A DNA stretch of 64,000 nt from a virus: IMG/VR virus record IMGVR_UViG_3300043409_000680, positions 9,634 through 73,633 of that record; one strand, given 5' to 3'. Made by a program: the position numbers and the translations under genes. Below are positions 4,023-62,969 of this stretch, one piece after another (position 1 is the first letter of the stretch; each line of letters begins with the position of its first letter). Under the pieces are notes generated by a model, which made no database searches, was not told the origin of the DNA, and worked only from the letters and a program-made list of their open reading frames with translations.

Positions 4023-4071
4023 CATTCGGCCCCAACACAAACACACCCACTTAATTAAGGAGTAATACCGT

Positions 4072-5643
4072 ATGGCTACATATAGTAGACCCGGTGTCTA
4101 TATTCAAGAAATTGAATTGCCACAGACAGTTGCCCTTGCCAATAATGGCACAGCAATTGGAGCCTTCGTAGGCCCACTTGCAAAAGGACTAACATCTGTT
4201 CCAATCCTATTGACATCTTGGACACAGTTCACCAAAACTTTTGGCTCACTAGAAGATGCATACCCAACAACTTGGGCTGCTTATAACTTCTTCGCTAATG
4301 GCGGACGCCAATTATACGTGAAGCGCATTACAGGCTCAGGCGCCCTTGCAGCTTCTACACGCCTAGTAGACAAATCAAATGATGCTCTTGACACACTTGA
4401 TGTCTTTGCTGCTAATGCTGGATCATGGGGAAATGACCTCGGAATCCAAATTAAAGCAGCTGGATCAACAGATCGTTTTACACTTGTTGTATACGGTTCC
4501 CCAACAAATAGCAATGTAGCAACATCAAATGCTTTAGAACAGTTTACTGATCTAAGCATGGACATTACAGACCCACGTTACGCTATTTCAATGATCAACA
4601 CTTCTTCTGCCTATATTCGAGTCGTAGACTTGGAATCAGGCTCAACAGGTGATGAAAAAAATCCTGATGTTACTTCAGCAACTGTACCAGTTGCATTGTC
4701 AAGTGGCGCAGATGGAGCAGCTCCAGTTCGTGCTGATTATTCAAACGCTCTTGCTACATTTGATCCAATTGACAATCCACTAGTATTTAACATTCCAAAT
4801 GCTGCATACTTTTATACAACTTCCGGTTCAGGAACTGAGCGCACACTTGCTGTAAACGTACAGGGAGATGCAGTCAACTACTCAGAACTTCGTGGAGATT
4901 GCTTTGTAGTAGTAGACATTCCTGCTGGTCTTTCATCTACGGATGCACAGACATTTGCAACAGATGTAGTTTCTGCTGCACCTGACTCAGACGGTGGTTG
5001 CGCTGCTGCGTACTACCCATGGTTAAACGTTCCAGACACTCTTCGTGCTGCTCGTGGCGCAGTTCGTTCACAGGCACCGGGTGCTGCAATGGTTGGTCAG
5101 TATCTTGCTACAGACGCTTCTCGTGGCGTATTCAAGACACCAGCTGGCTACAACAACCGTGTAGCCCTTGCAGTCTCTACTGAATTCCAGTTTACAAATA
5201 CTCAATTAGATGCATTGAACGTTAGTGCACATCCAGTAAACGTAATCCGTCAAGTTCCAGGTAATGGAATTGTTGTAATGGGTGGTCGTACTCTTAACAA
5301 CACAACTGGAGACCGCTACATTAACGTTCGTCGTTCTATCATGTACCTTAAGAAAGAACTTACAGACCGCAGTGCTTTTGCAGTATTTGAAAATAATGAT
5401 GAGCGTCTATGGTCTTCTCTTCGTACGGTATTGGGTACGTTCTTACGTACTTATTGGCAAGCTGGTGGTCTTCGTGGAGCGACTACTAATCAAGCATTCT
5501 TTATACGTTGCGACGAGACTACAACAACAGAAGCTGATATCTTGAATGGTTTAGTCAACATTGAAGTTGGCGTAGCTTTAGAGTATCCAGCAGAGTTTGT
5601 GGTTATCAAACTCGGACAAATCACAGGAAACGCTTCGGCGTAA
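4072..5643 (+). CDS. tail sheath protein
   Basis: RPGVYIQE N-terminus, FFANGG, AGSWGN, RYINVRR, VFENND, PAEFV C-terminus. Confidence 0.95.
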   Translation: MATYSRPGVYIQEIELPQTVALANNGTAIGAFVGPLAKGLTSVPILLTSWTQFTKTFGSLEDAYPTTWAAYNFFANGGRQLYVKRITGSGALAASTRLVDKSNDALDTLDVFAANAGSWGNDLGIQIKAAGSTDRFTLVVYGSPTNSNVATSNALEQFTDLSMDITDPRYAISMINTSSAYIRVVDLESGSTGDEKNPDVTSATVPVALSSGADGAAPVRADYSNALATFDPIDNPLVFNIPNAAYFYTTSGSGTERTLAVNVQGDAVNYSELRGDCFVVVDIPAGLSSTDAQTFATDVVSAAPDSDGGCAAAYYPWLNVPDTLRAARGAVRSQAPGAAMVGQYLATDASRGVFKTPAGYNNRVALAVSTEFQFTNTQLDALNVSAHPVNVIRQVPGNGIVVMGGRTLNNTTGDRYINVRRSIMYLKKELTDRSAFAVFENNDERLWSSLRTVLGTFLRTYWQAGGLRGATTNQAFFIRCDETTTTEADILNGLVNIEVGVALEYPAEFVVIKLGQITGNASA

Positions 5644-5657
5644 GGAGATAGAGACAA

Positions 5658-6293
5658 ATGACAATACCAAATATTAATCCGTTATCACACATTGAAACAG
5701 ATCCAATTCGTAACTTTAAGTTTCTAGTAAAGTTTACTCCACTTGACGGCGACGGCGGAGATACAAAGTGGGGAGCACAATTTGGAAAGCTTGGTTTCGT
5801 ATCAGTAAGCGGCCTTAGTGTAACAACTGAGTCTATTGCTTACCGTGAAGGCGGATACAACACGAATCTACACCAGATTCCTGGACAAACTTCTTTCACA
5901 CCAATTACCCTTTCTAAGGGAGTTATGATCGGTAGCGGAAGCGATGTCCACGCTAACTGGATGAAGCGTCTGTTTACTATCATGACATCAACCTCTGCAG
6001 CAGGAGCTGTTGGTAATGACTTCCGTTGCCACGTAGACATTCAAGTGCTAAGCCACCCAAACCCAGCAGGATACAGCGGAAAAGGTGGAGCAGCGGTTGC
6101 TACTGCAGATCTGCAACATACATCTATGCGTTTTAAGGTCTATAATGCATGGATTACAAACTTAACATACAGCAATCTTGATGCCGGAGCAAACTCACTC
6201 ATGGTTGAAGAGATGACTCTAATGCATGAAGGTTTTGATGTAAGTTTTGCTGCAGACTTAAAAACTACAGCAGCAACTCCTTCCGAATACTAA
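5658..6293 (+). CDS. tail tube protein (T4 gp19-like)
   Basis: DPIRNFKF, GFxSVSGL, YREGG, PITLSKG, NAW, E-mTLxHEG. Confidence 0.92.
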   Translation: MTIPNINPLSHIETDPIRNFKFLVKFTPLDGDGGDTKWGAQFGKLGFVSVSGLSVTTESIAYREGGYNTNLHQIPGQTSFTPITLSKGVMIGSGSDVHANWMKRLFTIMTSTSAAGAVGNDFRCHVDIQVLSHPNPAGYSGKGGAAVATADLQHTSMRFKVYNAWITNLTYSNLDAGANSLMVEEMTLMHEGFDVSFAADLKTTAATPSEY

Positions 6294-6305
6294 AACTAAA
6301 CAAAG

Positions 6306-7139
6306 GTGAATAATATGGATACAGAAACAAAAGTAGACGCACAATCTAACCCTGCCTTACTTAATAAGTTAGCGGCAGAAGCTATGGCACCATCTCAGGC
6401 GGAGGTAACAGCCACTAAACCAGTGGCTGTTATCACCCCTCCTGATTTAACAGTTGAACTTCCAGGTGGGTTGTATGACCCATTTGACGGGGTAACAAAA
6501 ACTGCAGAAATCCGTGAATTAAACGGAGCTGACGAAGAAGCTATTGCTCGTATTACAGACGCTGGTAAAGCCTTGCTTACAGTGCTAGAAAGAGCAACAG
6601 TTAAAATTGGTGAAAAACCTGTAAATAAAGAGTCTTTAGATACTTTGTTAGCTGGTGATAGAGAAATGCTATTACTTGCTATTAGAAAAGCAACTTTTGG
6701 TTCTACTGTTGAAGTAGGTCCGGGATTTTGCCCATCATGCGATGCAGAGCAGACCTTTAAAATTGACCTAACTGAAGATGTTACAGTAAAGACACTTAAT
6801 GAAGAAGATCGTGAATTTACTATGAACTGTAAAGTTGGGAAAGTTATAGTCTCTTTACCTAATGGGTATGTACAAAAAAGTATTGTGACTGCAACAAATA
6901 AGAACTCTGCTGAACTTGATACTTTATTATTAAAAGGATGCGTTCTTTCAATCAATGATGGTCCTATAGTCACTATAGATCATATTAAAAAACTAAGTCT
7001 TACAGATCGTAGAGATATTATTACAGAGATTACAAATCGTAACCCAGGACCACAATTAAGTGACATTAAAAAACCATGTATTTCCTGCGGCCTGGAGGTA
7101 CCGCTTCCGCTAACTTTAGCGGATCTATTTCGAGAGTAG
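6306..7139 (+). CDS. tail/baseplate assembly chaperone (T4 gp26-like)
   Basis: IRELNGADEE, GDRxxLLLAIR, two CxxC pairs; lies between tube and tape measure. Confidence 0.75.
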   Translation: MNNMDTETKVDAQSNPALLNKLAAEAMAPSQAEVTATKPVAVITPPDLTVELPGGLYDPFDGVTKTAEIRELNGADEEAIARITDAGKALLTVLERATVKIGEKPVNKESLDTLLAGDREMLLLAIRKATFGSTVEVGPGFCPSCDAEQTFKIDLTEDVTVKTLNEEDREFTMNCKVGKVIVSLPNGYVQKSIVTATNKNSAELDTLLLKGCVLSINDGPIVTIDHIKKLSLTDRRDIITEITNRNPGPQLSDIKKPCISCGLEVPLPLTLADLFRE

Positions 7140-7140
7140 T

Positions 7141-7281
7141 ATAGACTATCAAGAATTGATAGAAATATACTCTATTCTTACGCAGTTTTATAGTGGTTGG
7201 TCTCTTACAGAGATCAAAAGTCTTTCTAACAGAGAAAGGTTTATGTGGCTAGAGATGGCTTTAAATAGACCTAGAAGATAA
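7141..7281 (+). CDS. chaperone extension ORF in the +1 frame (not in ORF track)
   Basis: ...FYSGWSLTEIKSLSNRERFMWL resembles small pre-tape-measure chaperones; no SD before the TTG at 7156. Confidence 0.6.
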   Translation: MDYQELIEIYSILTQFYSGWSLTEIKSLSNRERFMWLEMALNRPRR

Positions 7282-7300
7282 TAATAGGTGGTGAGTTCTA

Positions 7301-14371: not shown

Positions 14372-14374
14372 AAG

Positions 14375-14704: not shown

Positions 14705-14706
14705 AA

Positions 14707-17064: not shown

Positions 17065-17097
17065 TAATGATCATCTATAGAACGATAAGGAACTAAT

Positions 17098-25520: not shown

Positions 25521-25749
25521 TGGTACTCAGCTATGCGTAGATGCGGATCCGGAAATCTTTTTTCCTCAAACGTATACATACCTAGATAAGGATACTGTAA
25601 ACGCTGCTAAAGCAGTGTGCGGTGATTGTTGGATGCAGAAGGACTGTTTAGAATATGCACTAAACGAACCAGGTCTAGAAGGGATCTGGGGAGGAACAAC
25701 CCCACTAGAAAGAAAGCGGTTAAAAAAATTAAACATATTAACGATGTAA
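25480..25749 (+). CDS. whiB: WhiB family transcription factor
   Basis: C...DPEIFFP...AKAVCGDC...C...GIWGG. Confidence 0.9.
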   Translation: MKNMAPLVNKSPFDGTQLCVDADPEIFFPQTYTYLDKDTVNAAKAVCGDCWMQKDCLEYALNEPGLEGIWGGTTPLERKRLKKLNILTM

Positions 25750-49283: not shown

Positions 49284-49748
49284 ATGGCAACAGCACTCGT
49301 AGCACTAGAAGGCGTACTTATGACGGAGGTCGGGGATCCAATCCCTGAGGGCATTCGTTTATTCCGCATACTCTCAGCTAGCTATCGTGTTGTAATTTGC
49401 TCTGATATGTCACAGGCACACACAGAACATTGGTTACGCTCCCACTTGATTACAGGTCAAGGAGATGTCTATGATAATAGGTACTTCTTTGAGGGCCAAG
49501 ACCTACGCTCCCGCCAGCTAGCTGTAGCTCTTAATGGTGGTCGTGTGGATCTATTTGTAGATCCGGACGCTGATAGATGTGCTGAAGCAGTTGCTATGGG
49601 AATAACCGCCCTTCTATTTGCAGCACCTAAATTTGTAAGAACTAAGCGCCAAGTAAAACCATGGGAAGATGTGGTTAATGAGGTTGAACGCCAGAAACTC
49701 GCCCTACTAGAAGCAGAGCTCGGTAGCTCAGTTAAGAGATATGAATGA
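49284..49748 (+). CDS. HAD-fold protein with degenerate motif I
   Basis: LVALEGVL (DxD replaced), PIPEG, WL, FVDPD. Confidence 0.6.
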   Translation: MATALVALEGVLMTEVGDPIPEGIRLFRILSASYRVVICSDMSQAHTEHWLRSHLITGQGDVYDNRYFFEGQDLRSRQLAVALNGGRVDLFVDPDADRCAEAVAMGITALLFAAPKFVRTKRQVKPWEDVVNEVERQKLALLEAELGSSVKRYE

Positions 49749-51238: not shown

Positions 51239-51302
51239 TACTTCCCCGCTATCCTTGCTTTACCTGATAACAGTCAATTACTATTAGAAATGAGAGTCTA
51301 TT

Positions 51303-53333
51303 TTGTTTTCCTTCAAGCTCACCGAAGATTTTGTAAATTCATATAAAGAAAAAACTGTACCATGGGGATATAAAGATGCCGCAGGTAACTCAGTCGGTGA
51401 GATTATCTTTCTAAGGACCTACTCTCGTCTTAAAGAGGACGGGACAAAGGAGACTTGGACTGAAGTATGCGAACGTGTCATCAATGGCATGTACTCCTTG
51501 CAGAAAGACCACGCCAAGCAGAACCGCCTACCATGGAATGACGCCAAAGCACAAGCTTCAGCCAAAGAAGCATTCCAGCGTCTATTTGAATTGAAGTGGA
51601 CACCTCCAGGTCGAGGCCTATGGGTAATGGGTACTGACATTGTGAATGTTCAAAGGAACTCAGCCGCACTTCAGAACTGCTCATTCGTATCTACAAACTC
51701 AATGACCAAGCTAGATCCTGCCAAGCCATTTGCATTCCTAATGGAGGCTTCTATGCTGGGAGTGGGAGTTGGCTTTGACGACAAGGGTGCAGACAAAGAC
51801 TTCACAATCTACGAACCACAGAAGGGAGATGACTATGTCATCCCAGATACCAGAGAAGGATGGGTCGAATCCACATCCGCTCTCATCAATGCTTACCTCA
51901 GAGCAGATACAAAGGCTCCAGTATTTCGTTACGAAGAAATTAGACCAGCAGGCACGCCAATTAAAACTTTCGGGGGAACAGCCGCCGGATCCGAACCTCT
52001 AGAGAAACTTCATGCCTATATCTCTAAGATCTTTGGGGGACGTGCTGGACAAAAAGTTACTCGCAAGGACATCGCAGATCTAGGAAATCTAATTGGAGTC
52101 TGTGTCGTTTCCGGTAACGTTCGCCGTTCAGCTGAGCTACTCATTGGTCGTATTGACGATGATGAGTTCCTTAACCTAAAGAATGCAGATGTATTCCCGG
52201 AGCGTAATTCTTATGATCCAAAGGCTCCAGGTTGGGGTTGGATGTCAAACAACTCGGTAGAGGCTAGTGTAGGTACAGACCTCTCAAAGATCATAGACGG
52301 CATTTCTCGTAATGGAGAGCCAGGCGTGGTCTGGATGGATGTAACTCGTAAATACGGTCGACTTGCTGATCCAATAAATAATAAAGACTGGAGAGCTGCC
52401 GGGTATAACCCGTGTGCAGAACAATCCCTAGAATCAATGGAGTGCTGTACTTTGGTAGAGACCTACCTCAATCGTCATACAGACCTAGATGACTACAAGC
52501 GTACGCTTAAGTTTGCTTACCTCTATGCAAAGACTGTAACTCTTCTTCCTACTCATTGGGAAGAGACAAACGCAATCATGCAGCGTAATCGCCGTATTGG
52601 AACATCAATGTCAGGTGTTGCAAACTTTGCGGATTTGAAGGGGCTTCCAACTCTACGTGAGTGGATGGATGCAGGTTATCAGACAGTTACTGCCTATGAT
52701 AAGAGTTACTCTGAATGGCTTGGTATTCGTGAATCAATTAAAACTACAACTGTAAAACCATCCGGCACTGTATCTATTCTCGCAGGAGAATCACCAGGAG
52801 TACATTGGACCCCCGGTGGTAAGTATTTCCTACGTACTATTCGCTTTGCTAATAGTGATGCAATGCTCCCATTGTTCAAAATGGCTAACTACCGTATTGA
52901 ACCAGCGTTAGAATCCCCCGGTACAACATCGGTGGTGTACTTCCCAATTAAGAGTGAAGCGATACGTTCTGAGAGAGAAGTATCTATTTACGAAAAGATG
53001 GCGCTTGCTGCAACTGCACAACGCTATTGGTCAGACAACTCTGTAAGTGTAACGATCAGCTTTGATCCTGCTACAGAGGCTAAAGCAATCGGCACAGCAC
53101 TTCACATGTACGACGGACAACTTAAGACTGTATCATTTCTACCGATGGACCCGAATAGTTACCAACAAATGCCGTATACACAGAGCACTGAAGCTGAGTA
53201 TGCGGACGGTACTATGAAACTCTTTCCCATTGATTTTAGTGGAATCTATAATGGGTTGGGATCGGACGCTATCGGAGAAGCATACTGTACGACCGATGCA
53301 TGTGAAGTAAAGCTAATCAAAGATAATATCTAA
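51303..53333 (+). CDS. nrdJ: class II (B12-dependent, monomeric RTPR-type) ribonucleotide reductase
   Basis: PPGRGLW, GNVRRSA, NPCAEQ, TVKPSGT, C-terminal CTTDAC. Confidence 0.95.
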   Translation: MFSFKLTEDFVNSYKEKTVPWGYKDAAGNSVGEIIFLRTYSRLKEDGTKETWTEVCERVINGMYSLQKDHAKQNRLPWNDAKAQASAKEAFQRLFELKWTPPGRGLWVMGTDIVNVQRNSAALQNCSFVSTNSMTKLDPAKPFAFLMEASMLGVGVGFDDKGADKDFTIYEPQKGDDYVIPDTREGWVESTSALINAYLRADTKAPVFRYEEIRPAGTPIKTFGGTAAGSEPLEKLHAYISKIFGGRAGQKVTRKDIADLGNLIGVCVVSGNVRRSAELLIGRIDDDEFLNLKNADVFPERNSYDPKAPGWGWMSNNSVEASVGTDLSKIIDGISRNGEPGVVWMDVTRKYGRLADPINNKDWRAAGYNPCAEQSLESMECCTLVETYLNRHTDLDDYKRTLKFAYLYAKTVTLLPTHWEETNAIMQRNRRIGTSMSGVANFADLKGLPTLREWMDAGYQTVTAYDKSYSEWLGIRESIKTTTVKPSGTVSILAGESPGVHWTPGGKYFLRTIRFANSDAMLPLFKMANYRIEPALESPGTTSVVYFPIKSEAIRSEREVSIYEKMALAATAQRYWSDNSVSVTISFDPATEAKAIGTALHMYDGQLKTVSFLPMDPNSYQQMPYTQSTEAEYADGTMKLFPIDFSGIYNGLGSDAIGEAYCTTDACEVKLIKDNI

Positions 53334-53342
53334 GGAGATATA

Positions 53343-53483: not shown

Positions 53484-53508
53484 CGCCCAAACGCCCAACA
53501 CAAACATT

Positions 53509-53538
53509 TGGCCCCGACTCAATTAAGAGCCGGGGCCA
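53509..53538. terminator. convergent (bidirectional) terminator
   Basis: TGGCCCCGACTC-AATTAA-GAGCCGGGGCCA at the strand switch. Confidence 0.75.
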
Positions 53539-53549
53539 TTTGCTTTGTC

Positions 53550-53705
53550 TTATTCGTCTTCGCATTCTTGATTTAAATAGTCAATCTCTGAATAGATATC
53601 ATTGATATGCCACTCAAGATTAGTTATACGCCGTGAATTTATACGGTCATACCACATGTCGACGCCTACGTATAATATAATCCCTATGATTATAAGCCAG
53701 TTCAT
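53550..53705 (-). CDS. small membrane protein (not in ORF track)
   Basis: SD AAGGAG; MNWLIIIGIILYVGVDMW. Confidence 0.6.
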   Translation of the reverse strand: MNWLIIIGIILYVGVDMWYDRINSRRITNLEWHINDIYSEIDYLNQECEDE

Positions 53706-53714
53706 TTGTTCTCC

Positions 53715-53927
53715 TTAATCGGATAGTTGCTTACCTTGTCCGTTACGTAATTCATAGAAGCTTTGATTGCTATCCTCTATACTATCATGTGCATCATCAA
53801 GGTCTGCTTCGTATATATCACCATCTAATAGGGCCTCATACATTTCTAATGCATGAGCATCATCGTCAGCCGTGAATGTTATTGTTCCTGATCTTTCTGT
53901 ACTGTACATTACTGAGTAGTTAGGCAT
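53715..53927 (-). CDS. acidic hypothetical protein
   Basis: SD GGAGG. Confidence 0.65.
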   Translation of the reverse strand: MPNYSVMYSTERSGTITFTADDDAHALEMYEALLDGDIYEADLDDAHDSIEDSNQSFYELRNGQGKQLSD

Positions 53928-54114
53928 TTTCTTTATCCTCCATTTTCATTTCCATTTCGTCATACGCATCAGCAGCTAGGATGTTATTGCTTCCCGCCTC
54001 ATCATTGCATTCTTCGCAAGGTTGAATATCCCATTCTTCCTCGTCACCGAAGTAGATATAGCCCCGTCCATGACACTCTGTACATGTCCGGGGCAGCACT
54101 GTTTCCATATCCAT
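53920..54114 (-). CDS. DnaJ-type zinc-finger micro-protein
   Basis: CTECHGRG...PCEEC. Confidence 0.6.
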   Translation of the reverse strand: MDMETVLPRTCTECHGRGYIYFGDEEEWDIQPCEECNDEAGSNNILAADAYDEMEMKMEDKENA

Positions 54115-54215
54115 TACTCTTCCCCTGTATCCCAACCACAATCAGAACATGCCCAAGTACCGTTCTCGGACATGCTCTCGTATGTGATTTTAGCTCCGCA
54201 TTCTTTACATCTCAT
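54114..54215 (-). CDS. zinc-ribbon micro-protein (not in ORF track)
   Basis: MRCKECG...CSDCG; TAATG coupling at both ends. Confidence 0.55.
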   Translation of the reverse strand: MRCKECGAKITYESMSENGTWACSDCGWDTGEE

Positions 54216-54502
54216 TATGCACCAACCTTCCAACTTAACAGACCTACCAAATGTGTTGGTTTGCCAGCATCATTGGTTGATTCAACCACCATCTTAATAG
54301 ATTTGCGTGGAGTGGTTTCAATGACATGGGCTTTAAGATACCGCTTAGCTGCAGACGGATTAGCCCATGCAGAATGTGTAACCATTTCATGAGGTTCTTC
54401 TACTGGATCTAGATCTGTTATGGTCAAGAGCCAGGCCCCGCCTTTTTCTACTGATGTGTTTTTTGTTAGTGTTGCTTCTAGTGTTCTTGTTGCTTTAGCC
54501 AT
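54215..54502 (-). CDS. hypothetical protein
   Basis: SD AAGGAG. Confidence 0.7.
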   Translation of the reverse strand: MAKATRTLEATLTKNTSVEKGGAWLLTITDLDPVEEPHEMVTHSAWANPSAAKRYLKAHVIETTPRKSIKMVVESTNDAGKPTHLVGLLSWKVGA

Positions 54503-54511
54503 GATTGCTCC

Positions 54512-54748
54512 TTATAGTTTTATATCTTGAGTAAAACCTACATGTTTTAGGTCACGCAGGATGTTCTTTCCAGCTCTACGGTCTCCTAAGGACTGAGGCC
54601 CAAAGAATACAGTTTTCCTGGTATCAGGGTTAACCACCTTGATATGGTGTTTACCTGTAGTTATAGAGACTTGTAAGCCAGCTTCCTCCAAAGCATCCAC
54701 TAGCTTTCTTATCTCCTTAGTTTTTATATTAAGGCTTGCAAATTGCAT
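54512..54748 (-). CDS. HicA-like dsRBD-fold protein
   Basis: LVDALEEAGLQV..TGKHHIKV..P. Confidence 0.55.
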   Translation of the reverse strand: MQFASLNIKTKEIRKLVDALEEAGLQVSITTGKHHIKVVNPDTRKTVFFGPQSLGDRRAGKNILRDLKHVGFTQDIKL

Positions 54749-54848
54749 CTCACTATTTTCTCCTTTCTAGTGTATCATTATGGGCGTAAGCTCTCATAGA
54801 ACAGAGTTCACGCCCTCAAGTCCCCTCGGGTTGCGCCCCGGGGGGATT

Positions 54849-55058
54849 TTACATATATTCTGTTAGATCTTCTACGTCTTCTATATACGTTTCTTCACCC
54901 GGTCTATCTAGATCTTCCGACGTTTGAATCCACTTCTTTTGTACCTTGTCGTATAGCCATAAAGACCAATCCCAATTGGCTGGATCACTTTGATCGTCTA
55001 TACGCCATTTAGCTACTTTGACGCTAAAGGTTACGGTCAGGTCATAATTGTCTTCCAT
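54849..55058 (-). CDS. hypothetical protein
   Basis: SD AAGGAGG. Confidence 0.65.
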   Translation of the reverse strand: MEDNYDLTVTFSVKVAKWRIDDQSDPANWDWSLWLYDKVQKKWIQTSEDLDRPGEETYIEDVEDLTEYM

Positions 55059-55071
55059 TTGCCCTCCTTAT

Positions 55072-55179
55072 TTAGTTGTCGCAGTCGTGTATACCTGTAT
55101 AACAGATAATACATACGTCTACGTTTTTCTTACCACATTTACATGTGATACTGGATATTACAGTATTGTGTTCATGCAT
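55072..55179 (-). CDS. Cys/His micro-protein (not in ORF track)
   Basis: SD GGAGG; CKCG...CIIC...HDC. Confidence 0.55.
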   Translation of the reverse strand: MHEHNTVISSITCKCGKKNVDVCIICYTGIHDCDN

Positions 55180-55224
55180 GATTCCTCCCCTTCTTTATTA
55201 GTATAGCGATTTGTTTGTGTTGGG

Positions 55225-55419
55225 TCAAATTACTTCTTCACCAAACTCATCGTACACAGTACCTACATCAATCCAGCCAGCCATGTTGTCTACAGTCCAA
55301 CTGTTAAAGCCATTGGATATATCTTCTTCGGCTAGCTTTATTGCTTCTTCTTTATTGTCTGCTTCTACCCAAAGGTCACCTAGTACGTGTTCATGGATAG
55401 TTATTTGGTATTTGGCCAT
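55225..55419 (-). CDS. acidic hypothetical protein
   Basis: SD AAGGAG; MAKYQI...VEADNKEEAIKLA. Confidence 0.65.
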   Translation of the reverse strand: MAKYQITIHEHVLGDLWVEADNKEEAIKLAEEDISNGFNSWTVDNMAGWIDVGTVYDEFGEEVI

Positions 55420-55871
55420 TATTTCTCCTTTTTGATTACTACACGAAACAATTTGTCTGGTGTAGGCCATTTGTATGGAAGATCCCCACGTACACGAAAC
55501 CGGTACCAAACCGGATCTTTACGTTTTAGGTTAGAGCGATGTGACTTATGAATTTCATCATTGCCCCACCACCAGGGTGGATCCCAACCCTGTAGGTCAT
55601 GCTCTGCATAGATTTCTTGCAGTCGTATTTGTACATTGTCTTCAAAGCCACGTTGTCTCCACTCTATGCACATAGCGTTCGTGTACATATATAGATAACC
55701 TTCGTGACCACGCCACATCACAGCTGCGGGGTGATTCCGCCATCCACTAGTTAGACCTAAGTTAGCCCTCAGAATTTGCAACGCTTCTACACGTTGCTTG
55801 CCGAGTCTCTTATTGTCTAAGGATTTAGCTGTGCGTGTTATGTCCGGCCAGGGCAGGAATGTATTAACCAT
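55419..55871 (-). CDS. pyrimidine dimer DNA glycosylase (T4 DenV / MSMEG_6728-like)
   Basis: TFLP...LD.KRLGKQRVEALQI...HPAAVMW.G...EW..RGF...SHRSNL.RKDP. Confidence 0.88.
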   Translation of the reverse strand: MVNTFLPWPDITRTAKSLDNKRLGKQRVEALQILRANLGLTSGWRNHPAAVMWRGHEGYLYMYTNAMCIEWRQRGFEDNVQIRLQEIYAEHDLQGWDPPWWWGNDEIHKSHRSNLKRKDPVWYRFRVRGDLPYKWPTPDKLFRVVIKKEK

Positions 55872-56029
55872 TAGTCCTCCAGTAACATAGGTATTAGGTC
55901 TTCTGCATCATGTGTGATCAGTAGTTCTCTAACTATTTCCTTATTGTCTGCATAGCGTTGCTCCTCACGTTGCTTTAGAACTTCGCTAATCCATATGTCT
56001 GGCCTATCTTGCCTTAGCTTATCTAAGCT
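55871..56029 (-). CDS. small hypothetical protein
   Basis: MSLDKLRQ... start overlapping the upstream stop. Confidence 0.55.
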   Translation of the reverse strand, partial: SLDKLRQDRPDIWISEVLKQREEQRYADNKEIVRELLITHDAEDLIPMLLED

Positions 56030-56220
56030 CATACAGATAGAGTCATAGTTAGCTGGTTGTCTTGTACCCATTCCATTGGTTCAGAGATAGATTCAATGGT
56101 TAGGTTTGCGCCCCCATCTGCAATATCTTCTGAGGCATGCAACAAGAACATCTGTGCAGATTCATAGTCATTGAATGGCCCTATCAGAGTCTCTGTGAGA
56201 CTGTCGAATATAACGTACAT
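56029..56220 (-). CDS. small hypothetical protein
   Basis: SD AAGGAG preceded by CCAACACAAAC. Confidence 0.65.
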   Translation of the reverse strand: MYVIFDSLTETLIGPFNDYESAQMFLLHASEDIADGGANLTIESISEPMEWVQDNQLTMTLSV

Positions 56221-56244
56221 TTTGTGCTCCTTTGTTTGTGTTGG

Positions 56245-58116
56245 TTACCGGCCACGCTTCTTGATGGCTCCGGATACTACAGACTTGGCAAATGGCACCA
56301 AGTCACGTGCTGATTTGATACGAGCAAAGATCTCAGCACCATGACGGAACTCATCCATTACATTGCCACGATCCTCGTAGTACTGCACATCACGATCACT
56401 CATGATAAGTGTCACGGCAGTTAGAATGCCACGCTTCTGGATACGTCCGATAATTTCATCGTTCTTGTTGGCATCGAACGCACCGTCAGTAATAATGAAC
56501 AGCATCTTATTCTTCTTACGAGAAGACATAAGTAACTGTTCAGCAGCAAGCAATGTTGGATACGGATTAGTACCACCATTGCCATAGATAAACTTGTAAT
56601 GAGTTTTGCTTGCTAACTCATCACGCTTGTAGGCTGTCTCAGCCTTATCATCGAATGCATACACAGTCACCGGAGCGCCAATGCTTTCAAGTGCACGCTT
56701 GATAGTCCAGCTCGCAATAGATGCGTCACGGTCATTGTGATAACTAGACATACTGCCTGACCTATCAACCATGATGACCGCTTCAACGTCAGCACCATCT
56801 GTGCCTTCATCCCAACGATCAAAGGCTTCATCAATCTCACAGCCTCTGAATACACGTTGCATGTTGAGTCGACCACTGGCTTCCTCACGGTGCCATGCGG
56901 GTTCACACTCATCACGCAGACGAGATAGTTCCTTAGCGAACTTGCGGTAATTCATCATTGCCTCTGGTGGCACTGTAGTTTTATCGAACTTACCTACACG
57001 CAGAGTATCGTTATGCTTACCATCTCCACCGACAATTACTTTCTGCTTGACTTTGATGTCTTGCTGAACGTCCTTACGGTCTAGTACATCTTGGATAATG
57101 TTATTTAACATATCGTTGATGTTATCAGGAATACCACCAGCACTAGCGATGTGACCTTCACCTGCGCTTAGTCCTGGAGTATTGTTTGTCTGTTGTGATT
57201 GTTCACGTGCTTCCAATGCTTCCTCTGCAGTATTGCTTTCAGTAGGAGGCGGAGGCGGCGTGTTTGTGTTGGATGCACTTGGATTACTTGCTTGTTCCTC
57301 AAGTGATTTACGCGGAGTCCAGTCTGGTTCCTTGGTACCCATATTGCCAGCTTTAGCGGCATCACGTTCCTGTGCCTTACCTGGTTCAGGGCGACCTTTA
57401 GATACTGGATCACGACTAGTGCATCCATTGGTACCTGAAGGTGGCTTACCCATGTCTTTGACTACTTCATCATTGAACCGCTTGATTAACTCCTTGGCTA
57501 ACGCATAGTCTCGGGGAAATGCAAGCACACGATACTGATCAACAATATCTGTAATGGCTGGAATTAGATCAGGCGCTCCGAATAGATCACGGAACGCTTG
57601 ACGCATTTCAACAGGTAGATACCTACGGCCACGAATCACTGCATAGTTACCTGCAGCATCTTCGGGTGTACCTGCAAGCCACCTAGCTACTGTGGCTGTT
57701 AGATACGGAGCGATACTAGGATAACGTGCTACTAACAATGTCTCGATACGCTGATCCTCTAGCATATTCATAGATTGCATGTAGTTATTTTCCAAGACCC
57801 ACTTCATTAGGTCTGTACCCTTGCGAGGTGTATACAAGTGATGCGCTAGCTCATGATAATTAAGGCCATTGACCTGGGTTAATGATTCCAAGTCCATCTC
57901 CTCAATCTGACTAGCATTGATAGTAATAGATGCACCATCAGACCAAGCCGGAGCTGGACCATCGGACGCTACATTAACTATCACTGGATCACCACTGAGT
58001 ACACGGTCAGCCTGTTCATATACACGACAAAGCGCATTGAGTCGCACAGATCGTTCTTGTGTGTCCTCATCACGTTCTTTCACGTACCAGGCGTCGTTCA
58101 AGTCCTCATCGAACAT
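56245..58116 (-). CDS. VWA domain protein with N-terminal HExxH (CobT-like MoxR partner)
   Basis: NYHELAH, NMLED.RIE, SGRLN, VDRSGSM, GGT, ITDG. Confidence 0.88.
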   Translation of the reverse strand: MFDEDLNDAWYVKERDEDTQERSVRLNALCRVYEQADRVLSGDPVIVNVASDGPAPAWSDGASITINASQIEEMDLESLTQVNGLNYHELAHHLYTPRKGTDLMKWVLENNYMQSMNMLEDQRIETLLVARYPSIAPYLTATVARWLAGTPEDAAGNYAVIRGRRYLPVEMRQAFRDLFGAPDLIPAITDIVDQYRVLAFPRDYALAKELIKRFNDEVVKDMGKPPSGTNGCTSRDPVSKGRPEPGKAQERDAAKAGNMGTKEPDWTPRKSLEEQASNPSASNTNTPPPPPTESNTAEEALEAREQSQQTNNTPGLSAGEGHIASAGGIPDNINDMLNNIIQDVLDRKDVQQDIKVKQKVIVGGDGKHNDTLRVGKFDKTTVPPEAMMNYRKFAKELSRLRDECEPAWHREEASGRLNMQRVFRGCEIDEAFDRWDEGTDGADVEAVIMVDRSGSMSSYHNDRDASIASWTIKRALESIGAPVTVYAFDDKAETAYKRDELASKTHYKFIYGNGGTNPYPTLLAAEQLLMSSRKKNKMLFIITDGAFDANKNDEIIGRIQKRGILTAVTLIMSDRDVQYYEDRGNVMDEFRHGAEIFARIKSARDLVPFAKSVVSGAIKKRGR

Positions 58117-58125
58117 TGTGCCCCC

Positions 58126-59514
58126 TTAGTTGTTTGTGTTGACTAACCATTTAGCCATCTCAGCTTCTGGTGAGATGTCGGCTTCCTTCTCAAGCTCGAC
58201 TGGTATTTCAATACCAAAGTCAGACTTAATGTTGTGTTCGTGTGTCTGAAATACTAAACGCACGCTTGGTTGCTCATCAGCACCGAAGTGAGCGATGAAG
58301 TTCTCGATTGCAAACTCATAGCCTAGGTCAGCATCTTTGATGAACTGCTCGATCTCGATGAGCATGTTAGTAGAGATTGGAGTTTCATACTGACCTTTGG
58401 CTGCTTCAGAACGAAGCTGCTTAGTTACAAGCAACAGAGCCTTAGATGAGATGAGCTTGGACTCAACCGCATCATCGTAATCCCATGACAGTTGAATGTC
58501 AAAGCGGTTACGCATTGCAAAGTTGAGCGGAGTTGTACCAATGTAGTCTGGGTTCATCGTAGCAAAGATTGTAAGGTCTTGGTGAGCGATGATTGTTTCA
58601 CCCATGTGGTCTAGCAATGTAATGCTACGACGACCATCAGTGAGCGGATAGAGAGTAGTGTAAATCTTAGGGCTGATGAAGTTCATCTCATCAAGCAGTA
58701 AGACACCACCGTTACGAACTACGTCAGTGACTGGACCATCAATCCATCCATAGCCACCGTTGCCATCAGGAATGAAACCACCGAACAACTGGCGTGATTC
58801 CATAGATGCATTACCAGATACTGTAGCCATACGTAAGCCACGAGCAGCGGCCCACGCTTCTACAGCGGTTGTCTTACCAGGACCAGTTGGACCATAGATA
58901 AGAACGTTGATGCTATCAGCACGAGCCTTATCGAAAGCCTTGAAGTCTTCGACTCCATAGACCTTACGATGAACGTAGCGTTCAGCTAGTCTCATTGGTG
59001 GCACTGTAGCCAGCGACACATTGAATGCGGGCTGGGCTGTTGTTGTTTGTGTTGGCAACTCATGCACAGGTACTATCAGTGGGACTGTAGTACTAGATGC
59101 TGAGCGGTTGTCTTTAACGAATGTATCCAAGCCATCGTCTCCTTCGATTATGCGTTGGTAGATATCGTAGATGATATCTGTCAACGGTCGGTCATCTGTA
59201 TTTGGATCAGCTTTAGTATGTGCTTGGCACGCCTTTGTACCTAACACAGGGGAATAGCCTTTGGCAGTCATTGCTTTATCATCTGCCGGGGTAACATACA
59301 CACCAGACATCTGACGTGTTAGTTTCTCAGCATCATTGATATCTGATACCAGACTGTCTAAGTTTGTTTCTACCCATGCATTGTGATGACCTTTAGTGCC
59401 ATCAGTCTTGCGTGAATAGATACGAACATCATTACCGTGAGGAGTTACTATCACCTGACGGCGAGAGGCTCCCATTGATGGTTCGTATGATTCTGTGAAC
59501 ACTGCTATGTTCAT
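58126..59514 (-). CDS. MoxR/CbbQ-type AAA+ ATPase
   Basis: GPTGPGKT, WIDGP, LLLDEMN, ATMNP.Y.GT..LN, NRF. Confidence 0.9.
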   Translation of the reverse strand: MNIAVFTESYEPSMGASRRQVIVTPHGNDVRIYSRKTDGTKGHHNAWVETNLDSLVSDINDAEKLTRQMSGVYVTPADDKAMTAKGYSPVLGTKACQAHTKADPNTDDRPLTDIIYDIYQRIIEGDDGLDTFVKDNRSASSTTVPLIVPVHELPTQTTTAQPAFNVSLATVPPMRLAERYVHRKVYGVEDFKAFDKARADSINVLIYGPTGPGKTTAVEAWAAARGLRMATVSGNASMESRQLFGGFIPDGNGGYGWIDGPVTDVVRNGGVLLLDEMNFISPKIYTTLYPLTDGRRSITLLDHMGETIIAHQDLTIFATMNPDYIGTTPLNFAMRNRFDIQLSWDYDDAVESKLISSKALLLVTKQLRSEAAKGQYETPISTNMLIEIEQFIKDADLGYEFAIENFIAHFGADEQPSVRLVFQTHEHNIKSDFGIEIPVELEKEADISPEAEMAKWLVNTNN

Positions 59515-59532
59515 AGGTTCCCTTTCTGTTGG

Positions 59533-59772
59533 TTATTGATTTTTATCAAGGAGGCGATCCTCCATGACTGTTGCAAACGTGAACATTGCTTGCTTCTCAG
59601 CAGGCCATTCCGTTATTAGTTCAAACAGAATGTCATGTTGAATTGCTTTCTCCATGACTTTTCTGAATTTATCTTGAGCAAAGACTAGGAACTCTTCCTG
59701 CTCTGCTTCTGGAATATCATTGAGACTAAACTCTTGAGATTCCATTCCTTCATCTTCACATTCATGACACAT
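59533..59772 (-). CDS. acidic hypothetical protein
   Basis: SD AAGGAG. Confidence 0.65.
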   Translation of the reverse strand: MCHECEDEGMESQEFSLNDIPEAEQEEFLVFAQDKFRKVMEKAIQHDILFELITEWPAEKQAMFTFATVMEDRLLDKNQ

Positions 59773-59791
59773 GTTATTCTCCTTTTGTTAG

Positions 59792-59963
59792 TAGTTTGGT
59801 TGGCTTACCCTCGTTGCCTTGCAGGGACAATCTGATATGCCTGCACCGTTTGAAAGGCAGTCCAACACTGGTTGTTACACGCAACTGTGTCGCTGTTCGC
59901 TTCGTAATCGGGATCTAGGGGGATCTGAGGTATGCTTGGAGATAGGCTTAGCCAACCAAACTA
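59792..59963. ncRNA. candidate structured RNA closed by a 14-bp inverted repeat
   Basis: TAGTTTGGTTGGCT...AGCCAACCAAACTA enclosing three internal hairpins. Confidence 0.45.
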
Positions 59964-60031
59964 GTGAACTAACATCTACAAGGGAAAGGGAGGTTTTTAC
60001 ACACAGTGTTATCACCTCCTAGCAGTCCTTG

Positions 60032-60346
60032 TTAGAGGTTAGTGTATTCACTCGCATCATTGAATGGTTCACTGGGATCGTTATAGATCGCATTGAGCCA
60101 TGGCTTGAAACGATTTGATATTGCTTTAGGTTTGTCACTAGGTCGTGTAGACTCATAACACCCTAAATAGCTTTCGTGATAGTGTTCATAGCTTTTGTAT
60201 CGAGTATTAAATACCTCGAGACTCTTTTGATGTGGTTGAATACGACGACCACAGTTACCACATGATGTGCGGTCGTTTATTACATCAGACATGGTTGGAC
60301 TATCTGCTATGTCTGGTTCGTAGCTTGGCCTTTTTTTAGTAGGCAT
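60032..60346 (-). CDS. hypothetical protein, zinc-binding
   Basis: SD GGAGG; CGNC...H...C. Confidence 0.65.
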   Translation of the reverse strand: MPTKKRPSYEPDIADSPTMSDVINDRTSCGNCGRRIQPHQKSLEVFNTRYKSYEHYHESYLGCYESTRPSDKPKAISNRFKPWLNAIYNDPSEPFNDASEYTNL

Positions 60347-60370
60347 TGCTCCTCCGTTTGTTTGTGTTGG

Positions 60371-60886
60371 TTAGTTGTTTGGATATAGCACTGGACGTTC
60401 AAGTTGTGTCCAGGTATCAACTGCATTTCGTGTGCTGTTCTGGATAAGCTCATTGAATGCATTACCAGGCATTGACTTACTGATTGCCATAGCAATACTT
60501 TTAAGGAAATTACTTGCTGTTGACATATTGTTACGTTTGATTATTTTGGCTGCAATAGTTTTCTCACCTAATACAGTTGCAAATACAGCAGCGTATTCAC
60601 TGTAGCCAAGTAATCTAGGATCTCCATCATCTAAAGATGAGATTACTGTAGATAATGTTCTCAGTGCTATTTCAATATCATTCCTACTTGATTGCTCTAA
60701 TAGGTAATTGATAACAGCATCTCTAAAGTTGCTGCTTTGTGCACCAACATCTAGAATTGTGCTAGAAATATTACCCCGTGTAAGAAGAAATGCTGTTCTG
60801 TTATGAGTAGCGTCCCCATCAACATACAAAGCATCCGCTTGCAACAGAACTGTTGGATCATAGGCTATCTTGATATCATCCAGCAT
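60371..60886 (-). CDS. hypothetical protein
   Basis: Helical ORF with start overlapping the upstream gene end. Confidence 0.65.
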   Translation of the reverse strand: MLDDIKIAYDPTVLLQADALYVDGDATHNRTAFLLTRGNISSTILDVGAQSSNFRDAVINYLLEQSSRNDIEIALRTLSTVISSLDDGDPRLLGYSEYAAVFATVLGEKTIAAKIIKRNNMSTASNFLKSIAMAISKSMPGNAFNELIQNSTRNAVDTWTQLERPVLYPNN

Positions 60887-61628
60887 ATTGTTGTACCATC
60901 CTTTCAAGTTCACTCATCGCAGGCATTGTTACCTGAGTGAGCGGGTTGATTGTTATTATCTTTCTATCCTTTACCCTGAGTGGGGAACCATCCCAGTCTA
61001 AAGAAATTGGTTTGTTACCGTAGTCACGTTTACCCGTGCCACTACATGCGTTACATTCATGTGCACGTTTTACTTTATGAGCATCTAACAAGCCATGTTC
61101 ACATGGTAAGGTATGATATGAGCGGTATGGATGTGTTTGTGTTGAGCCAGGATGTTCGGGGCATGAGAACACGCCGTTACTATCTTTGTCTCCTTTATAG
61201 CACGGCACAGCATTGCACCAGCCATCTACTTTGCCTGTTTTAGCACAGATACGACAGCCTTGTATTTTAGAAGGAGTAAGTGCAGGATCCATTTCAATCA
61301 CTTTAATTTGATAGTTACGTTGATAAACTTCAATGCCTGTGTACTTCCATATGCGATAACGAACACCTTGAGATTTTAAGATTTGGTATGAGCCACCCCA
61401 ACCGGTAGTAACTATTTCACCTTTAAGCGTGAATGAATCATCATTGTGTACTGTGATGAATGGGAAGTTACCTGCCCATGTAGCAATGATTTGTAAGTCA
61501 CCGCCAGCTGGTTGCCATTTGTTAGCCTTTTGAATTCTCATCCCATATTCATACAACGGGCGCATATACTTCTTACGACCACCGTCTAAGTAATCAGACC
61601 AGTAATCGTATGTATGCATTCTATACAT
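60876..61628 (-). CDS. protein with DnaJ-like zinc-finger repeats
   Basis: CRICAKTG, CPEH, CEHG, CNACSGTG. Confidence 0.65.
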   Translation of the reverse strand: MYRMHTYDYWSDYLDGGRKKYMRPLYEYGMRIQKANKWQPAGGDLQIIATWAGNFPFITVHNDDSFTLKGEIVTTGWGGSYQILKSQGVRYRIWKYTGIEVYQRNYQIKVIEMDPALTPSKIQGCRICAKTGKVDGWCNAVPCYKGDKDSNGVFSCPEHPGSTQTHPYRSYHTLPCEHGLLDAHKVKRAHECNACSGTGKRDYGNKPISLDWDGSPLRVKDRKIITINPLTQVTMPAMSELERMVQQYAG

Positions 61629-61939
61629 TAGTTAGCCTCCGCAGTCTCAAACAATCCAGCCATGCATCCTACTGCAGGCTCATCGTCTAAGTCAACATAG
61701 TGAAGTTCGATAACGCGTTCGCGGTCTCGTTCCAGTGTTTGTGTTGGCTCATCGTCATACCACACAGAGGTGAGTGATATCACAGATGATAACGGCTTGA
61801 GTAACTTAAGCGCAAAGCCTAAGCCATCCATAAGCCCACTGTAATATGCACGGGCATTTTGTTGCTCAAGCCCATGTAATTCAGCATGCTCTTCAAGTAT
61901 CTGCTGTTCTATAGCAGCTACTATCTTCTTTTTACGCAT
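61628..61939 (-). CDS. hypothetical protein
   Basis: SD AAAGG; TAATG coupling. Confidence 0.65.
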   Translation of the reverse strand: MRKKKIVAAIEQQILEEHAELHGLEQQNARAYYSGLMDGLGFALKLLKPLSSVISLTSVWYDDEPTQTLERDRERVIELHYVDLDDEPAVGCMAGLFETAEAN

Positions 61940-62199
61940 TGCTATGTCCTTTCTACTATAGTCTCTACACTACTGTGCAGAGTATCAATGCCGTCATTCC
62001 ACAGCATTAAAGCTTCTTTACGTGTTAGACCATGAAATAGTTGTGCTTTAACTATAAATAGGGAACGGTCAATAAAAGTATTTGTAGCTATTTTTAGTTT
62101 CATTTCTTATGTGCTCCATAATTAAACGCTAGTACTATAAACAACAGCACTGCGTACACGATGATCCATTTGATCATTTGTTATCCTTTCTGTTAGTGT

Positions 62200-62301
62200 G
62201 CACACATACGTCGGGTTTCTCAAGGCATAGCCGTTCGCTATGCTCCCCTGTCGAGGTCCTCTATTACGACAACCCCTCCCATCTGCCACCCGTATGTATG
62301 C
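62200..62301 (-). ncRNA. candidate multibranch RNA
   Basis: 11-bp closing stem GCAUACAUACG/CGUAUGUGUGC with two internal hairpins. Confidence 0.45.
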
Positions 62302-62340
62302 GTTGGGAGTATCTCCGTGCTTGCGCGAGGGAGAATAATA

Positions 62341-62430
62341 GTGAGCAGTTTGTATTCCTCATACTCAGGAGGCGTCCTGTTGGACAGGCAACATTAGTAA
62401 GCAGTTTATCCTTCACATGCTTAGGTGAGG
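62341..62430 (-). ncRNA. two tandem H-type pseudoknot motifs
   Basis: CCUCAC-CUAAGCAU-GUGA...AAAC-UGCUUA and CCUC-CUGAGUAU-GAGG...AAAC-UGCUCA; compensatory changes between copies. Confidence 0.6.
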
Positions 62431-62478
62431 AGTTCTTTTACCTCAGGAAGAACTTTAGAAACCAACCAGCGTTAACTG

Positions 62479-62928
62479 TTAGCGAAGATACTGGAAGAAT
62501 CCACTCTTCATTGACACCTTGATGTCAGTATCTATGCAGCCCTTGAACATAGCAATAGCATTCTCAATCTCTTCCAGAGGTGCAACCTTTTGGTTGTAGT
62601 TAGTCTGGTCATATTGAGGCCGCATATTTTGATCATCTGGGCATGGTCCAATAGCATCAGCAAGCACTGACATATCTACAACCAAATCAATGGTTACAGT
62701 ATGTCTTCGGTAATTGCGGACAGATACGTCGCTATCATCTTCAATCAATGACACAGCGTTCTTCTTGAACCAAGCACGGGCTTTCTTATCCCATGCTTTT
62801 TGCTTGGCTGGAAGTTTGCTTGATGCCTCTTCCCAGTCAGCTATCTCTTTCTTCATGCGGTCACGAGTTGCCTCTAACTGCTTGATAAGAGACTTGGTGT
62901 TGTATGTAACTGATGCGGTTGTAGCCAC
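62479..62928 (-). CDS. hypothetical protein
   Basis: SD GGAGG; GTG start. Confidence 0.7.
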   Translation of the reverse strand: MATTASVTYNTKSLIKQLEATRDRMKKEIADWEEASSKLPAKQKAWDKKARAWFKKNAVSLIEDDSDVSVRNYRRHTVTIDLVVDMSVLADAIGPCPDDQNMRPQYDQTNYNQKVAPLEEIENAIAMFKGCIDTDIKVSMKSGFFQYLR

Positions 62929-62969
62929 GTCAGCCTCCCTTGTCTAGTGTGTGGTTTGTTTGTGTTGGT

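Follow-up and report, generated by a model that had tools for sequence, protein, structure and literature searches.

What does a short DNA word do that recurs along one arm of a phage genome and always points in the direction of transcription? The question is raised by a 64,000-nucleotide stretch of viral DNA (hereafter the window), bases 9634–73633 of a 73,633-bp IMG/VR virus contig (IMGVR_UViG_3300043409_000680) with an estimated completeness of 75 %. Nearly all genes of the window run rightward, up to a hairpin at 53509–53538 from which the direction is leftward to the contig end. This leftward arm carries an array of a 12-base word, YCAACAYAAACA, and it is incomplete because the window ends where the contig ends. 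The counts, orientation and conservation described below indicate that the word is a real, functional cis-element that follows the direction of transcription.

An earlier note, made from the sequence alone, had reported nine exact and two one-mismatch copies of an 11-mer, CCAACACAAAC, and had expected a given 11-mer well under once in 64 kb. The computed count finds the same copies at the same coordinates, with exact matches at 4032 and 53495 on the + strand and at 55213, 56234, 57262, 59045, 60360, 61737 and 62958 on the − strand. In dinucleotide-preserving shuffles, an enrichment check of the kind that the note had suggested, the mean is 0.03 copies and 0 of 100 shuffles reach nine, in agreement with that expectation. 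Allowing up to one mismatch gives 12 sites in the window, compared to 1.4 expected. The three one-mismatch sites are TCAACACAAAC at 58132 and 61135 (−) and CCTACACAAAC at 13700 (+), the last being a probable chance match that is not among the 11 copies counted.

All 11 copies run on into an A, so that the full element is the 12-mer YCAACAYAAACA; the reported 11-mer was a real word cut one base short. With simple codon repeats excluded, CAACACAAACA (11 copies) is the top-ranking 10–12-mer of the 73.6-kb contig. The word consists of A and C, contains no G and carries about 22 bits. In a logo built from 167 distinct sites of the window and its relatives, the element is a self-contained YCAACACAAACA with A as the usual next base; no second conserved block stands at a fixed distance from the word among these sites, and the 10 nt downstream are T-poor. 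Elsewhere in the whole contig a 14-mer, CAAGGTACCCAAGG, occurs four times, and GGTGGTGGTGG-type repeats, which probably encode glycine-rich or collagen-like repeats, are also frequent.

The 11 copies, with the hairpin and the promoter that adjoin or enclose some of them, are as follows (gene coordinates are calls based on open reading frames, ORFs, made in this analysis; SD, Shine–Dalgarno sequence; RNR, ribonucleotide reductase):

4032–4043, + strand: word copy CCAACACAAACA, 10 nt past the stop of ORF 3423–4022 and 29 nt ahead of the ATG of the tail sheath gene (4072–5643)
53495–53506, + strand: word copy, sense to the RNR operon, 3 nt ahead of the convergent hairpin
53509–53538, no strand: hairpin terminator with a 12-bp stem, the convergence point of the two arms
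55200–55228, − strand: sigma-70/sigA-type promoter TTGACC-N17-TATACT (10/12 match), enclosing the next copy
55212–55223, − strand: word copy in the spacer of this canonical promoter, 1 nt past a TGA stop
56233–56244, − strand: word copy abutting the TAA of the VWA/CobT-like gene, with the SD of the next gene directly behind it
57261–57272, − strand: word copy (SNTN) within the VWA/CobT-like gene (56245–58116), in a linker rich in indels
58131–58142, − strand: variant copy TCAACACAAACA (VNTN) in the final codons of the AAA_5/CobS-like gene, 12 nt from the next SD
59044–59055, − strand: intragenic word copy (PTQT) in a hypervariable linker of the CobS-like gene (58126–59514)
60359–60370, − strand: word copy abutting a TAA stop, followed at once by the SD of ORF 60032–60346
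61134–61145, − strand: variant copy TCAACACAAACA (STQT) within the 250-aa ORF 60876–61628
61736–61747, − strand: intragenic word copy (PTQT) within the 103-aa ORF 61628–61939
62957–62968, − strand: word copy, the first in the window's array, 29 nt ahead of the GTG of ORF 62479–62928, where a conserved non-coding region has its 3′ end

The interval 53495–62968 holds ten of the 11 copies, within the last 10.5 kb as the note had stated. Nine are on the − strand in the leftward arm, while the + copies are found only at the convergent hairpin and before the sheath gene. Every copy is thus in the sense orientation, and the claimed reversal of orientation at the convergent terminator falls at the hairpin 53509–53538. 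The description of copies just past stop codons and ahead of SDs also stands: a stop codon abuts the word at three sites, 56234 and 60360 (TAA/CCAAC) and 55213 (TGAc/CCAAC), and an SD follows within 0–16 nt at five (56234, 58132, 60360, 62958 and 4032). Where the word is neither intragenic nor next to a terminator, it lies 12–36 nt from the start codon. Six of the 11 copies are intergenic and four to five intragenic. The intragenic copies are read in different frames (PTQT twice, SNTN and STQT), and the four peptides named in the note, VNTN included, are found as it had given them.

Conservation, spacing and promoter context of the word

A search of IMG/VR with the CobS-like protein gave 24 related loci (65–83 % protein identity, 450,860 bases in total), which are kin and not independent samples. 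The word and its polarity are the same in all 24. There are 142 exact 12-mers on the sense strand of the arm compared to 22 on the opposite strand, and these 22 are single copies past the convergence point, sense for the RNR operon, in 22 of the 24 loci. A further 43 sense copies have one mismatch, which is T at position 1 in 23, T at position 7 in 16 and another change in four. Related arms hold 8–12 copies each.

The copy in the CobS-like gene has motif columns that are 96–100 % identical in 24 sequences, against a mean third-codon-position identity of 65 %. Most relatives also have the VWA-gene copy, located in a linker that is likewise rich in indels. In the 103-aa ORF the copy is exact in 14 of 22 orthologues, and the other eight encode a different peptide at that place. 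Since the synonymous sites are invariant and these eight orthologues have another peptide, the peptide is not the conserved unit. The shuffles, the invariant synonymous sites and the replaced peptides together rule out chance or a peptide repeat as the origin of the word, in line with the note's view that it is not a peptide motif and with the synonymous-site comparison by which it had proposed to check this.

The same note had supposed a phage-wide code, which does not hold: complete relatives of about 100 kb restrict the word to one 10–12-kb arm, the terminator copy and 0–3 copies elsewhere. In the five complete or near-complete relatives (89–104 kb) the word is found only in the 10–12-kb arm, as the inverted copy and at 0–1 other places. 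One relative, G003, has only four copies.

Distant relatives, with sheath proteins 35–50 % and CobS-like proteins 24–27 % identical, still carry the identical word. Their copies stand at the same landmarks, namely past the VWA stop, at the RNR terminator and ahead of the sheath gene, the pre-sheath copy being at the same place in G014 and G015, and the word often lies directly before or after a hairpin. In G015 eight copies are spread over the genome and two of them are antisense to genes. That the word has stayed constant while structural proteins drifted to 35–50 % identity makes it a strong handle on the regulation of these phages.

The copies are evenly spaced. Across the family, the 165 gaps between copies have a minimum of 502 nt and a median of 1246 nt, with 156 of them between 500 and 2000 nt. 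The coefficient of variation of the spacing in the window is 0.22, a value matched by a fraction of 0.0002 of 5000 random placements, and most relatives show similar regularity. Genes of the arm average about 300 nt and therefore do not impose the regular spacing by their boundaries; both long genes carry an internal copy. The comparisons suggest that selection acts on the nucleotides and on the spacing of the word, which is fitted even into protein linkers so as to hold a distance of about 1.2 kb.

The copy at 55213 has TTGACC before it and TATACT six bases after it, and the two hexamers form the best sigma-70-type match on the strand of the arm. The arrangement TTGAC..word..N6–7..TAnnnT recurs in 16 of 25 loci and surrounds none of the 165 other copies. 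Its −10 element varies (TAGAAT, TATACT, TACACT, TAAACT, TAGACT, all of them TAnnnT), and so do the spacer bases. A copy between −35 and −10 is in an operator position, one that makes no evident sense for an RNA signal. That the sites exist, are polar, conserved and evenly spaced, and overlap a promoter is directly observed.

How the word may be read

With a probability that we put at about 0.4, YCAACAYAAACA represents a set of operator and roadblock sites, in double-stranded DNA, for a phage-encoded asymmetric DNA-binding regulator. We favor this operator reading because the site is asymmetric, near-invariant and 12–13 nt long, because it is fully polar and placed at kilobase distances, because one copy is in operator position and because the word has no host-wide use. 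To our knowledge, no system has been described with this profile other than the operators and stoperators of the Cluster A mycobacteriophages. We infer that the site is read as DNA, that bound copies block polymerase and that the reader is encoded by the phage. Such a regulator would bind the YCAACAYAAACA duplex asymmetrically, probably as a monomer. The copy in the TTGACC-N17-TAnnnT spacer would act as an operator on the host RNA polymerase, while the arm copies, about a kilobase apart, would act as orientation-dependent roadblocks to polymerase moving in the sense direction. The CobS/CobT-DenV-WhiB block would in this way be silenced in its entirety, with the copy at the end of the RNR operon sealing it against convergent read-through. 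The purpose would be the temporal shut-off of a block that is presumably early, judging from its gene content, and whose genes read opposite to the rest of the genome, rather than immunity. The phages concerned are uncultured WhiB-carrying myophages of about 100 kb.

Several observations weigh against such an operator system. The word is constant between phages with sheath proteins as little as 35–50 % identical, which is unusual for a repressor and its operators. Total sense polarity is automatic for an RNA signal and needs a special mechanism for a DNA site, and for the copies flanking hairpins and the copy before the late sheath gene a roadblock has no advantage over an RNA signal. In relatives, no copy was seen at the arm's main divergent promoter region, and the first 2 kb or so of the arm are free of copies. 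A reader is also not apparent. Among 74 small ORFs of the window, no Pfam helix-turn-helix, ribbon-helix-helix or MerR domain was found at E ≤ 0.001. ORFs of the arm without known relatives (ORFans) have no PDB or Pfam match, a PDB sequence search with three of them gave nothing, and a protein atlas search with the 250-aa ORF 60876–61628 returned sub-threshold matches only. Finally, the phages look lytic, as the window contig and up to eight relatives yielded no tyrosine integrase, serine recombinase or ParB, and the immunity rationale of stoperators is then inapplicable. The earlier note had seen neither integrase nor repressor, and none is detectable with the search extended to up to nine records.

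It is possible, though we consider it doubtful, that the word acts instead as an RNA-level cis-element, recognized in the mRNA by an RNA-binding protein or an endoribonuclease of the phage or host. It would then control processing or decay of the arm transcript, translation downstream, or terminator hairpins in the manner of TRAP or PyrR. Strict sense polarity would follow automatically, many copies lie 0–16 nt ahead of an SD, and the kilobase spacing would suit cleavage entry sites. A stop–word–(2–6 nt)–terminator hairpin or a hairpin–word–SD order is recurrent, also in distant relatives. The conserved SpoVS/Alba-like protein and the weakly HicA-like ORF 54512–54748 are conceivable readers. 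The Brevibacterium phage Cantare (NC_071014.1) offers a parallel in its CACCAACA words, 10 sense and 1 antisense in 28.8 kb, several of them shortly before SDs in 5′ leaders, a loose bias toward CA-rich sequence similar to the word of the window. However, 12 near-invariant bases exceed the usual specificity of bacterial RNA-binding proteins and RNases, and the copy in the promoter spacer lies outside the transcript of that promoter. Nor is there a sign of selection for accessibility: the predicted energy for opening the mRNA at the word is 2.7 kcal/mol compared to 2.0 kcal/mol with shuffled flanks (70 sites), so that the word is predicted to be no more single-stranded than it would be between shuffled flanks. 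A base-pairing partner is lacking as well in the phage genomes, in 401 actinobacterial genomes and in two rRNA operons. The reverse complement of the word is present in the phage genomes only as the inverted copies, and in the 401 actinobacterial genomes it is rare. In the two rRNA operons, from two small actinobacterial genomes, the longest complementary run is 8 nt, in the 23S gene, which is at chance level, and pairing with rRNA was rejected.

A loading site that re-arms polymerase for processive antitermination, read on the non-template strand or the nascent RNA as in the ops/RfaH or nut/N systems, is an unlikely explanation. It would fit a 12-nt, strictly polar and evenly repeated element whose first array copy lies in a leader, behind a strong hairpin (63301–63266) and a conserved structured region. 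It would also fit the lack of copies in the first sub-operon of the arm (WhiB and neighbours) and the position of some copies immediately ahead of terminator hairpins. On the other hand, there are about ten copies per arm, compared to one or two per operon in the known ops and nut systems. The word-rich 8 kb of the window contain no strong internal terminator that would need suppression, and the copy embedded in the promoter is left unexplained. No NusG/RfaH-like domain was found among the small ORFs scanned, and with no NusG-like or boxA-type partner in sight the boxA/nut option raised by the note loses ground.

We regard as improbable a signal in DNA metabolism, such as a Chi-like or anti-nuclease site, a nick or priming site or a polar fork barrier, serving the block whose transcription opposes that of the rest of the genome. 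An even spacing of about 1.2 kb with a 500-nt minimum suggests a processive machine, and the phage encodes RecA, a DnaB-like helicase, a DnaG-type primase and a small nuclease-like protein beside RecA. The two copies antisense to genes in G015 point the same way, but about one antisense copy is possible by chance in the approximately 1.6 Mb examined. Where copies stand alone elsewhere, they are oriented like the genes around them, the word is restricted to 10–12 % of the genome, and known Chi and priming words are much shorter. There is also no enrichment in genomes of the host class. We looked at 401 actinobacterial genomes across the class of an Actinotalea genome, a sample that may miss the true host, and found the word in 33, nearly always as a single copy. 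A host-wide word is thus rejected for the 401 genomes sampled, and the Chi-like or DNA-entry role that the note had also considered becomes unlikely. Copies in small genomes are scattered, except for a repeat common to G153, G107 and G032 that does not adjoin an rRNA gene. One actinobacterium of 69 % G+C (G244, C1:2854728–2899637) has seven copies of the 12-mer in one orientation, within near-identical giant ORFs (4300–4700 aa) resembling polyketide synthases (PKS); this cluster was ruled out as an analogue, being a coincidence of repeated PKS-like modules.

Finally, it is very improbable that the word serves a phage-specific or phage-modified RNA polymerase as its promoter. In favor of this, copies are polar and lie between genes ahead of SDs, that of the highly expressed sheath gene among them. 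But no partner element stands at a fixed distance and the downstream 10 nt are poor in T; in the stop/word/SD sites the start point would fall inside the word, and copies directly ahead of terminators would make no sense. The corresponding polymerase was not found either. There was no match to PF00940 in a search whose control genomes were also without a match, no sigma-70 region 2 in the window contig and the relatives examined, and no two-barrel polymerase signature D[FY]DGD in six-frame translations of G000 and G001.

Beside the operator reading we tentatively raise a wider possibility, which we would not rate above doubtful. An evenly spaced, transcription-polar “ruler” word may mark a whole block in large lytic actinophages, even in coding linkers, and a dedicated reader may govern the fate of the polymerase or the transcript there, with words that differ by lineage (CCAACACAAACA here and GCTCCGGGT in the cultured Gordonia phage GMA6). 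The conserved SpoVS/Alba-like protein or an ORFan are candidate readers, and such control may work together with the conserved structured RNA ahead of the first copy. If this were true, it would be a principle of block-level control distinct from immunity stoperators. If roadblocks and operators prove to be the function in a lytic phage, the stoperator principle would extend beyond lysogenic immunity, and a reading in RNA or by some other machine would make the word a new kind of signal. The word is in any case a simple target for testing, with one oligonucleotide, few candidate proteins and a cultured relative, GMA6.

The candidate leader region and gene content of the phage

Between a 16-bp hairpin at 63301–63266 and the first word copy lies a conserved non-coding region of about 280 nt (62985–63265, −). 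It is 68–85 % identical in at least 11 relatives, and 22 of the 36 pairs predicted by RNAalifold show compensatory changes; for example, a hairpin GGATTG..CAATCC becomes GGGTTG..CAACCC or TGGTTG..CAACCA. TGCTAAG and ACTTCGTGGG are invariant blocks. Rfam gave no family at gathering score in the window and only a chance-level hit near the first copy (E 0.33). The region is a candidate new structured RNA or leader. In relatives, the divergent region at the start of the arm (L009, about 4460–4530; L025, about 3090–3180) has a tRNA-like T-arm of GGTTCGATTCC type and G-rich blocks, and neither ARAGORN nor Rfam made a call on these sequences; the window stops short of this region.

The main genes of the arm and the operon that converges on it are:

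51303–53333: class II RNR, rightward operon
53550–64000, − strand: leftward arm with the word array and many small ORFans, cut by the contig end
55419–55871, − strand: DenV glycosylase
56245–58116, − strand: VWA CobT-like gene
58126–59514, − strand: CobS-like AAA_5 gene
63670–63930, − strand: WhiB gene of the arm (span as a paralogue listed as 63727–63891)

The window belongs to a contractile-tail myophage of about 42 % G+C with sheath (4072–5643), tube, baseplate and tape measure genes, and its replication genes encode a DnaB-like helicase, a DnaG-type primase, a family A DNA polymerase and RecA. Three WhiB paralogues (25528–25722, +; 35970–36191, +; 63727–63891, −) point to an actinobacterial host and so agree with the actinophage setting assumed in the note. 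Together with the G+C content they suggest that the phages probably infect abundant low-G+C freshwater actinobacteria. The WhiB gene of the arm is missing in some relatives that still have a full word array (G002). A search of genome contigs with the RNR gave no host, returning likely mis-binned phage contigs and distant Actinomycetes. One contig, JBDNFI010000028.1 (106 kb, labelled as a Cyclobacteriaceae metagenome-assembled genome), has an RNR 78 % identical to that of the phage, is close in size to these phage genomes and is probably a mis-binned phage contig.

The SpoVS-family protein (38421–38699, +; Pfam E 3e-23) is unusual in a phage of actinobacteria. It is 70–81 % identical between the window and distant relatives, compared to 52–53 % for the DNA polymerase (two distant relatives) and 56 % for the helicase. 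SpoVS has been linked with the Alba DNA/RNA-binding domain (PMC2732212, PMC11621453).

In the arm, the basic 78-aa ORF 54512–54748 (−) resembles HicA (HicA_toxin, E 8e-5, below the Pfam cut-off) and is followed by a conserved 95-aa ORF at 54215–54502 (−). Both are kept in more than 20 relatives and may form a HicAB-like pair, at scores that do not reach the curated cut-offs. A 107-aa ORF next to RecA (35617–35940, +) is 64–76 % identical in distant relatives and has no Pfam hit. By eye it has a PD-(D/E)xK-like GDV..LIEHK pattern; it is probably a small resolvase or nuclease and not a regulator, and was set aside as reader of the word. A 497-aa protein (49745–51238, +; PHROG E 1e-56) resembles queuine tRNA-ribosyltransferase and DpdA (TGT-like), and its sequence suggests 7-deazaguanine modification of the phage DNA. 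Outside the window, near the portal gene of G001 (L034:16284–19712), there is a highly charged, low-complexity ORFan of 1142 aa with no PHROG, Pfam or PDB match.

Comparison with known systems and cultured phages

No description of the word was found in print: the literal matches among those listed are unrelated primers or sequences, in a search that covered articles without their supplements, and nothing similar appeared among the listed matches in the stoperator, start-associated sequence (SAS) and freshwater-actinophage literature. A megablast of the arm against cultured phages likewise gave no match. Judged by the CobS-like protein, the closest phages in culture are Gordonia and Brevibacterium phages of 83–93 kb, with 42–48 % identity over part of the protein. 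Gordonia phage GMA6 (NC_030906.1) does not have YCAACAYAAACA. It has a polar word of its own, GCTCCGGGT, in eight copies that are all sense (0.5 expected per strand). Copies of GCTCCGGGT(G) are found only at 48375–64966, in the block that holds the CobS- and VWA-like genes; both genes have copies inside, and there are others closely behind the VWA stop and in three gaps between genes, with distances of 0.7–1.6 kb among the first six. Unlike YCAACAYAAACA, this word is 9–10 nt long and G+C-rich, and its statistical support is weaker. The congeneric phage DalanDe lacks the GCTCCGGGT array, and its polar GACCCCGA was rejected as an analogue, being an in-frame Asp-Pro-Glu/Asp codon word. The GMA6 array, apparently undescribed, may be the same architecture with another word, and we take it as a lead. 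If the architecture is the same, a different word in GMA6 argues for a co-evolving, phage-encoded reader.

Among established polar elements, ops is a 12-nt site, and the known ops/RfaH and nut/N systems have one or two sites close to the start of the operon and depend on a NusG paralogue or the N protein. The word resembles them as a short polar word in transcribed DNA or RNA and differs in its roughly ten copies per arm, with neither NusG paralogue nor N protein seen among the small ORFs. Chi, the FtsK-orienting polar sequences (KOPS) and DNA uptake words are spread over the host genome, and of such words about one per kb is tolerated at permissive positions inside genes. They are likewise short, polar or very frequent, and tolerated intragenically, whereas the word described here is limited to one phage arm and nearly absent from the 401 actinobacterial genomes.

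The SAS of Cluster K phages are described as asymmetric 13-bp sites with the SD core AGGAG, 3–7 bp from start codons, in one orientation in the non-structural part of the genome, absent from the host and of no known function (PMC3203893). The word shares with them its single orientation, its non-structural block and its near absence from the sampled actinobacterial genomes. It differs in the features that define them, having no SD core and lying 12–36 nt from starts, inside genes or by terminators, so that the SAS option of the note does not apply.

In the Cluster A phages L5 and TipsytheTRex, according to PMC9283540, a monomeric two-domain repressor binds more than 20 asymmetric 13-mers, placed at promoters and in short intergenic gaps, and is effective in one orientation only. 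This immunity repressor of temperate phages combines a helix-turn-helix with a stoperator domain. Unlike these stoperators, which are spread through the genome, the present sites occupy one 10–12-kb arm. They are evenly spaced, 4–5 of the 11 are intragenic, the word is A/C-only and it is conserved across very divergent phages; no integrase, recombinase or ParB gives them an immunity context. Like the stoperators, the word is an asymmetric 12–13-nt site in many copies (11 in the window, 8–12 per related arm). Its orientation tracks transcription, with 142 sense copies and the 22 opposite ones sense for the converging operon, and it combines a promoter copy (16 of 25 loci) with copies in short intergenic gaps (6 of 11 in the window). 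The word thus shares with stoperators the features of the site, not the genome-wide distribution or the lysogeny context, and by those site-level features the comparison made in the earlier note stands, the Cluster A system remaining the closest analogue.

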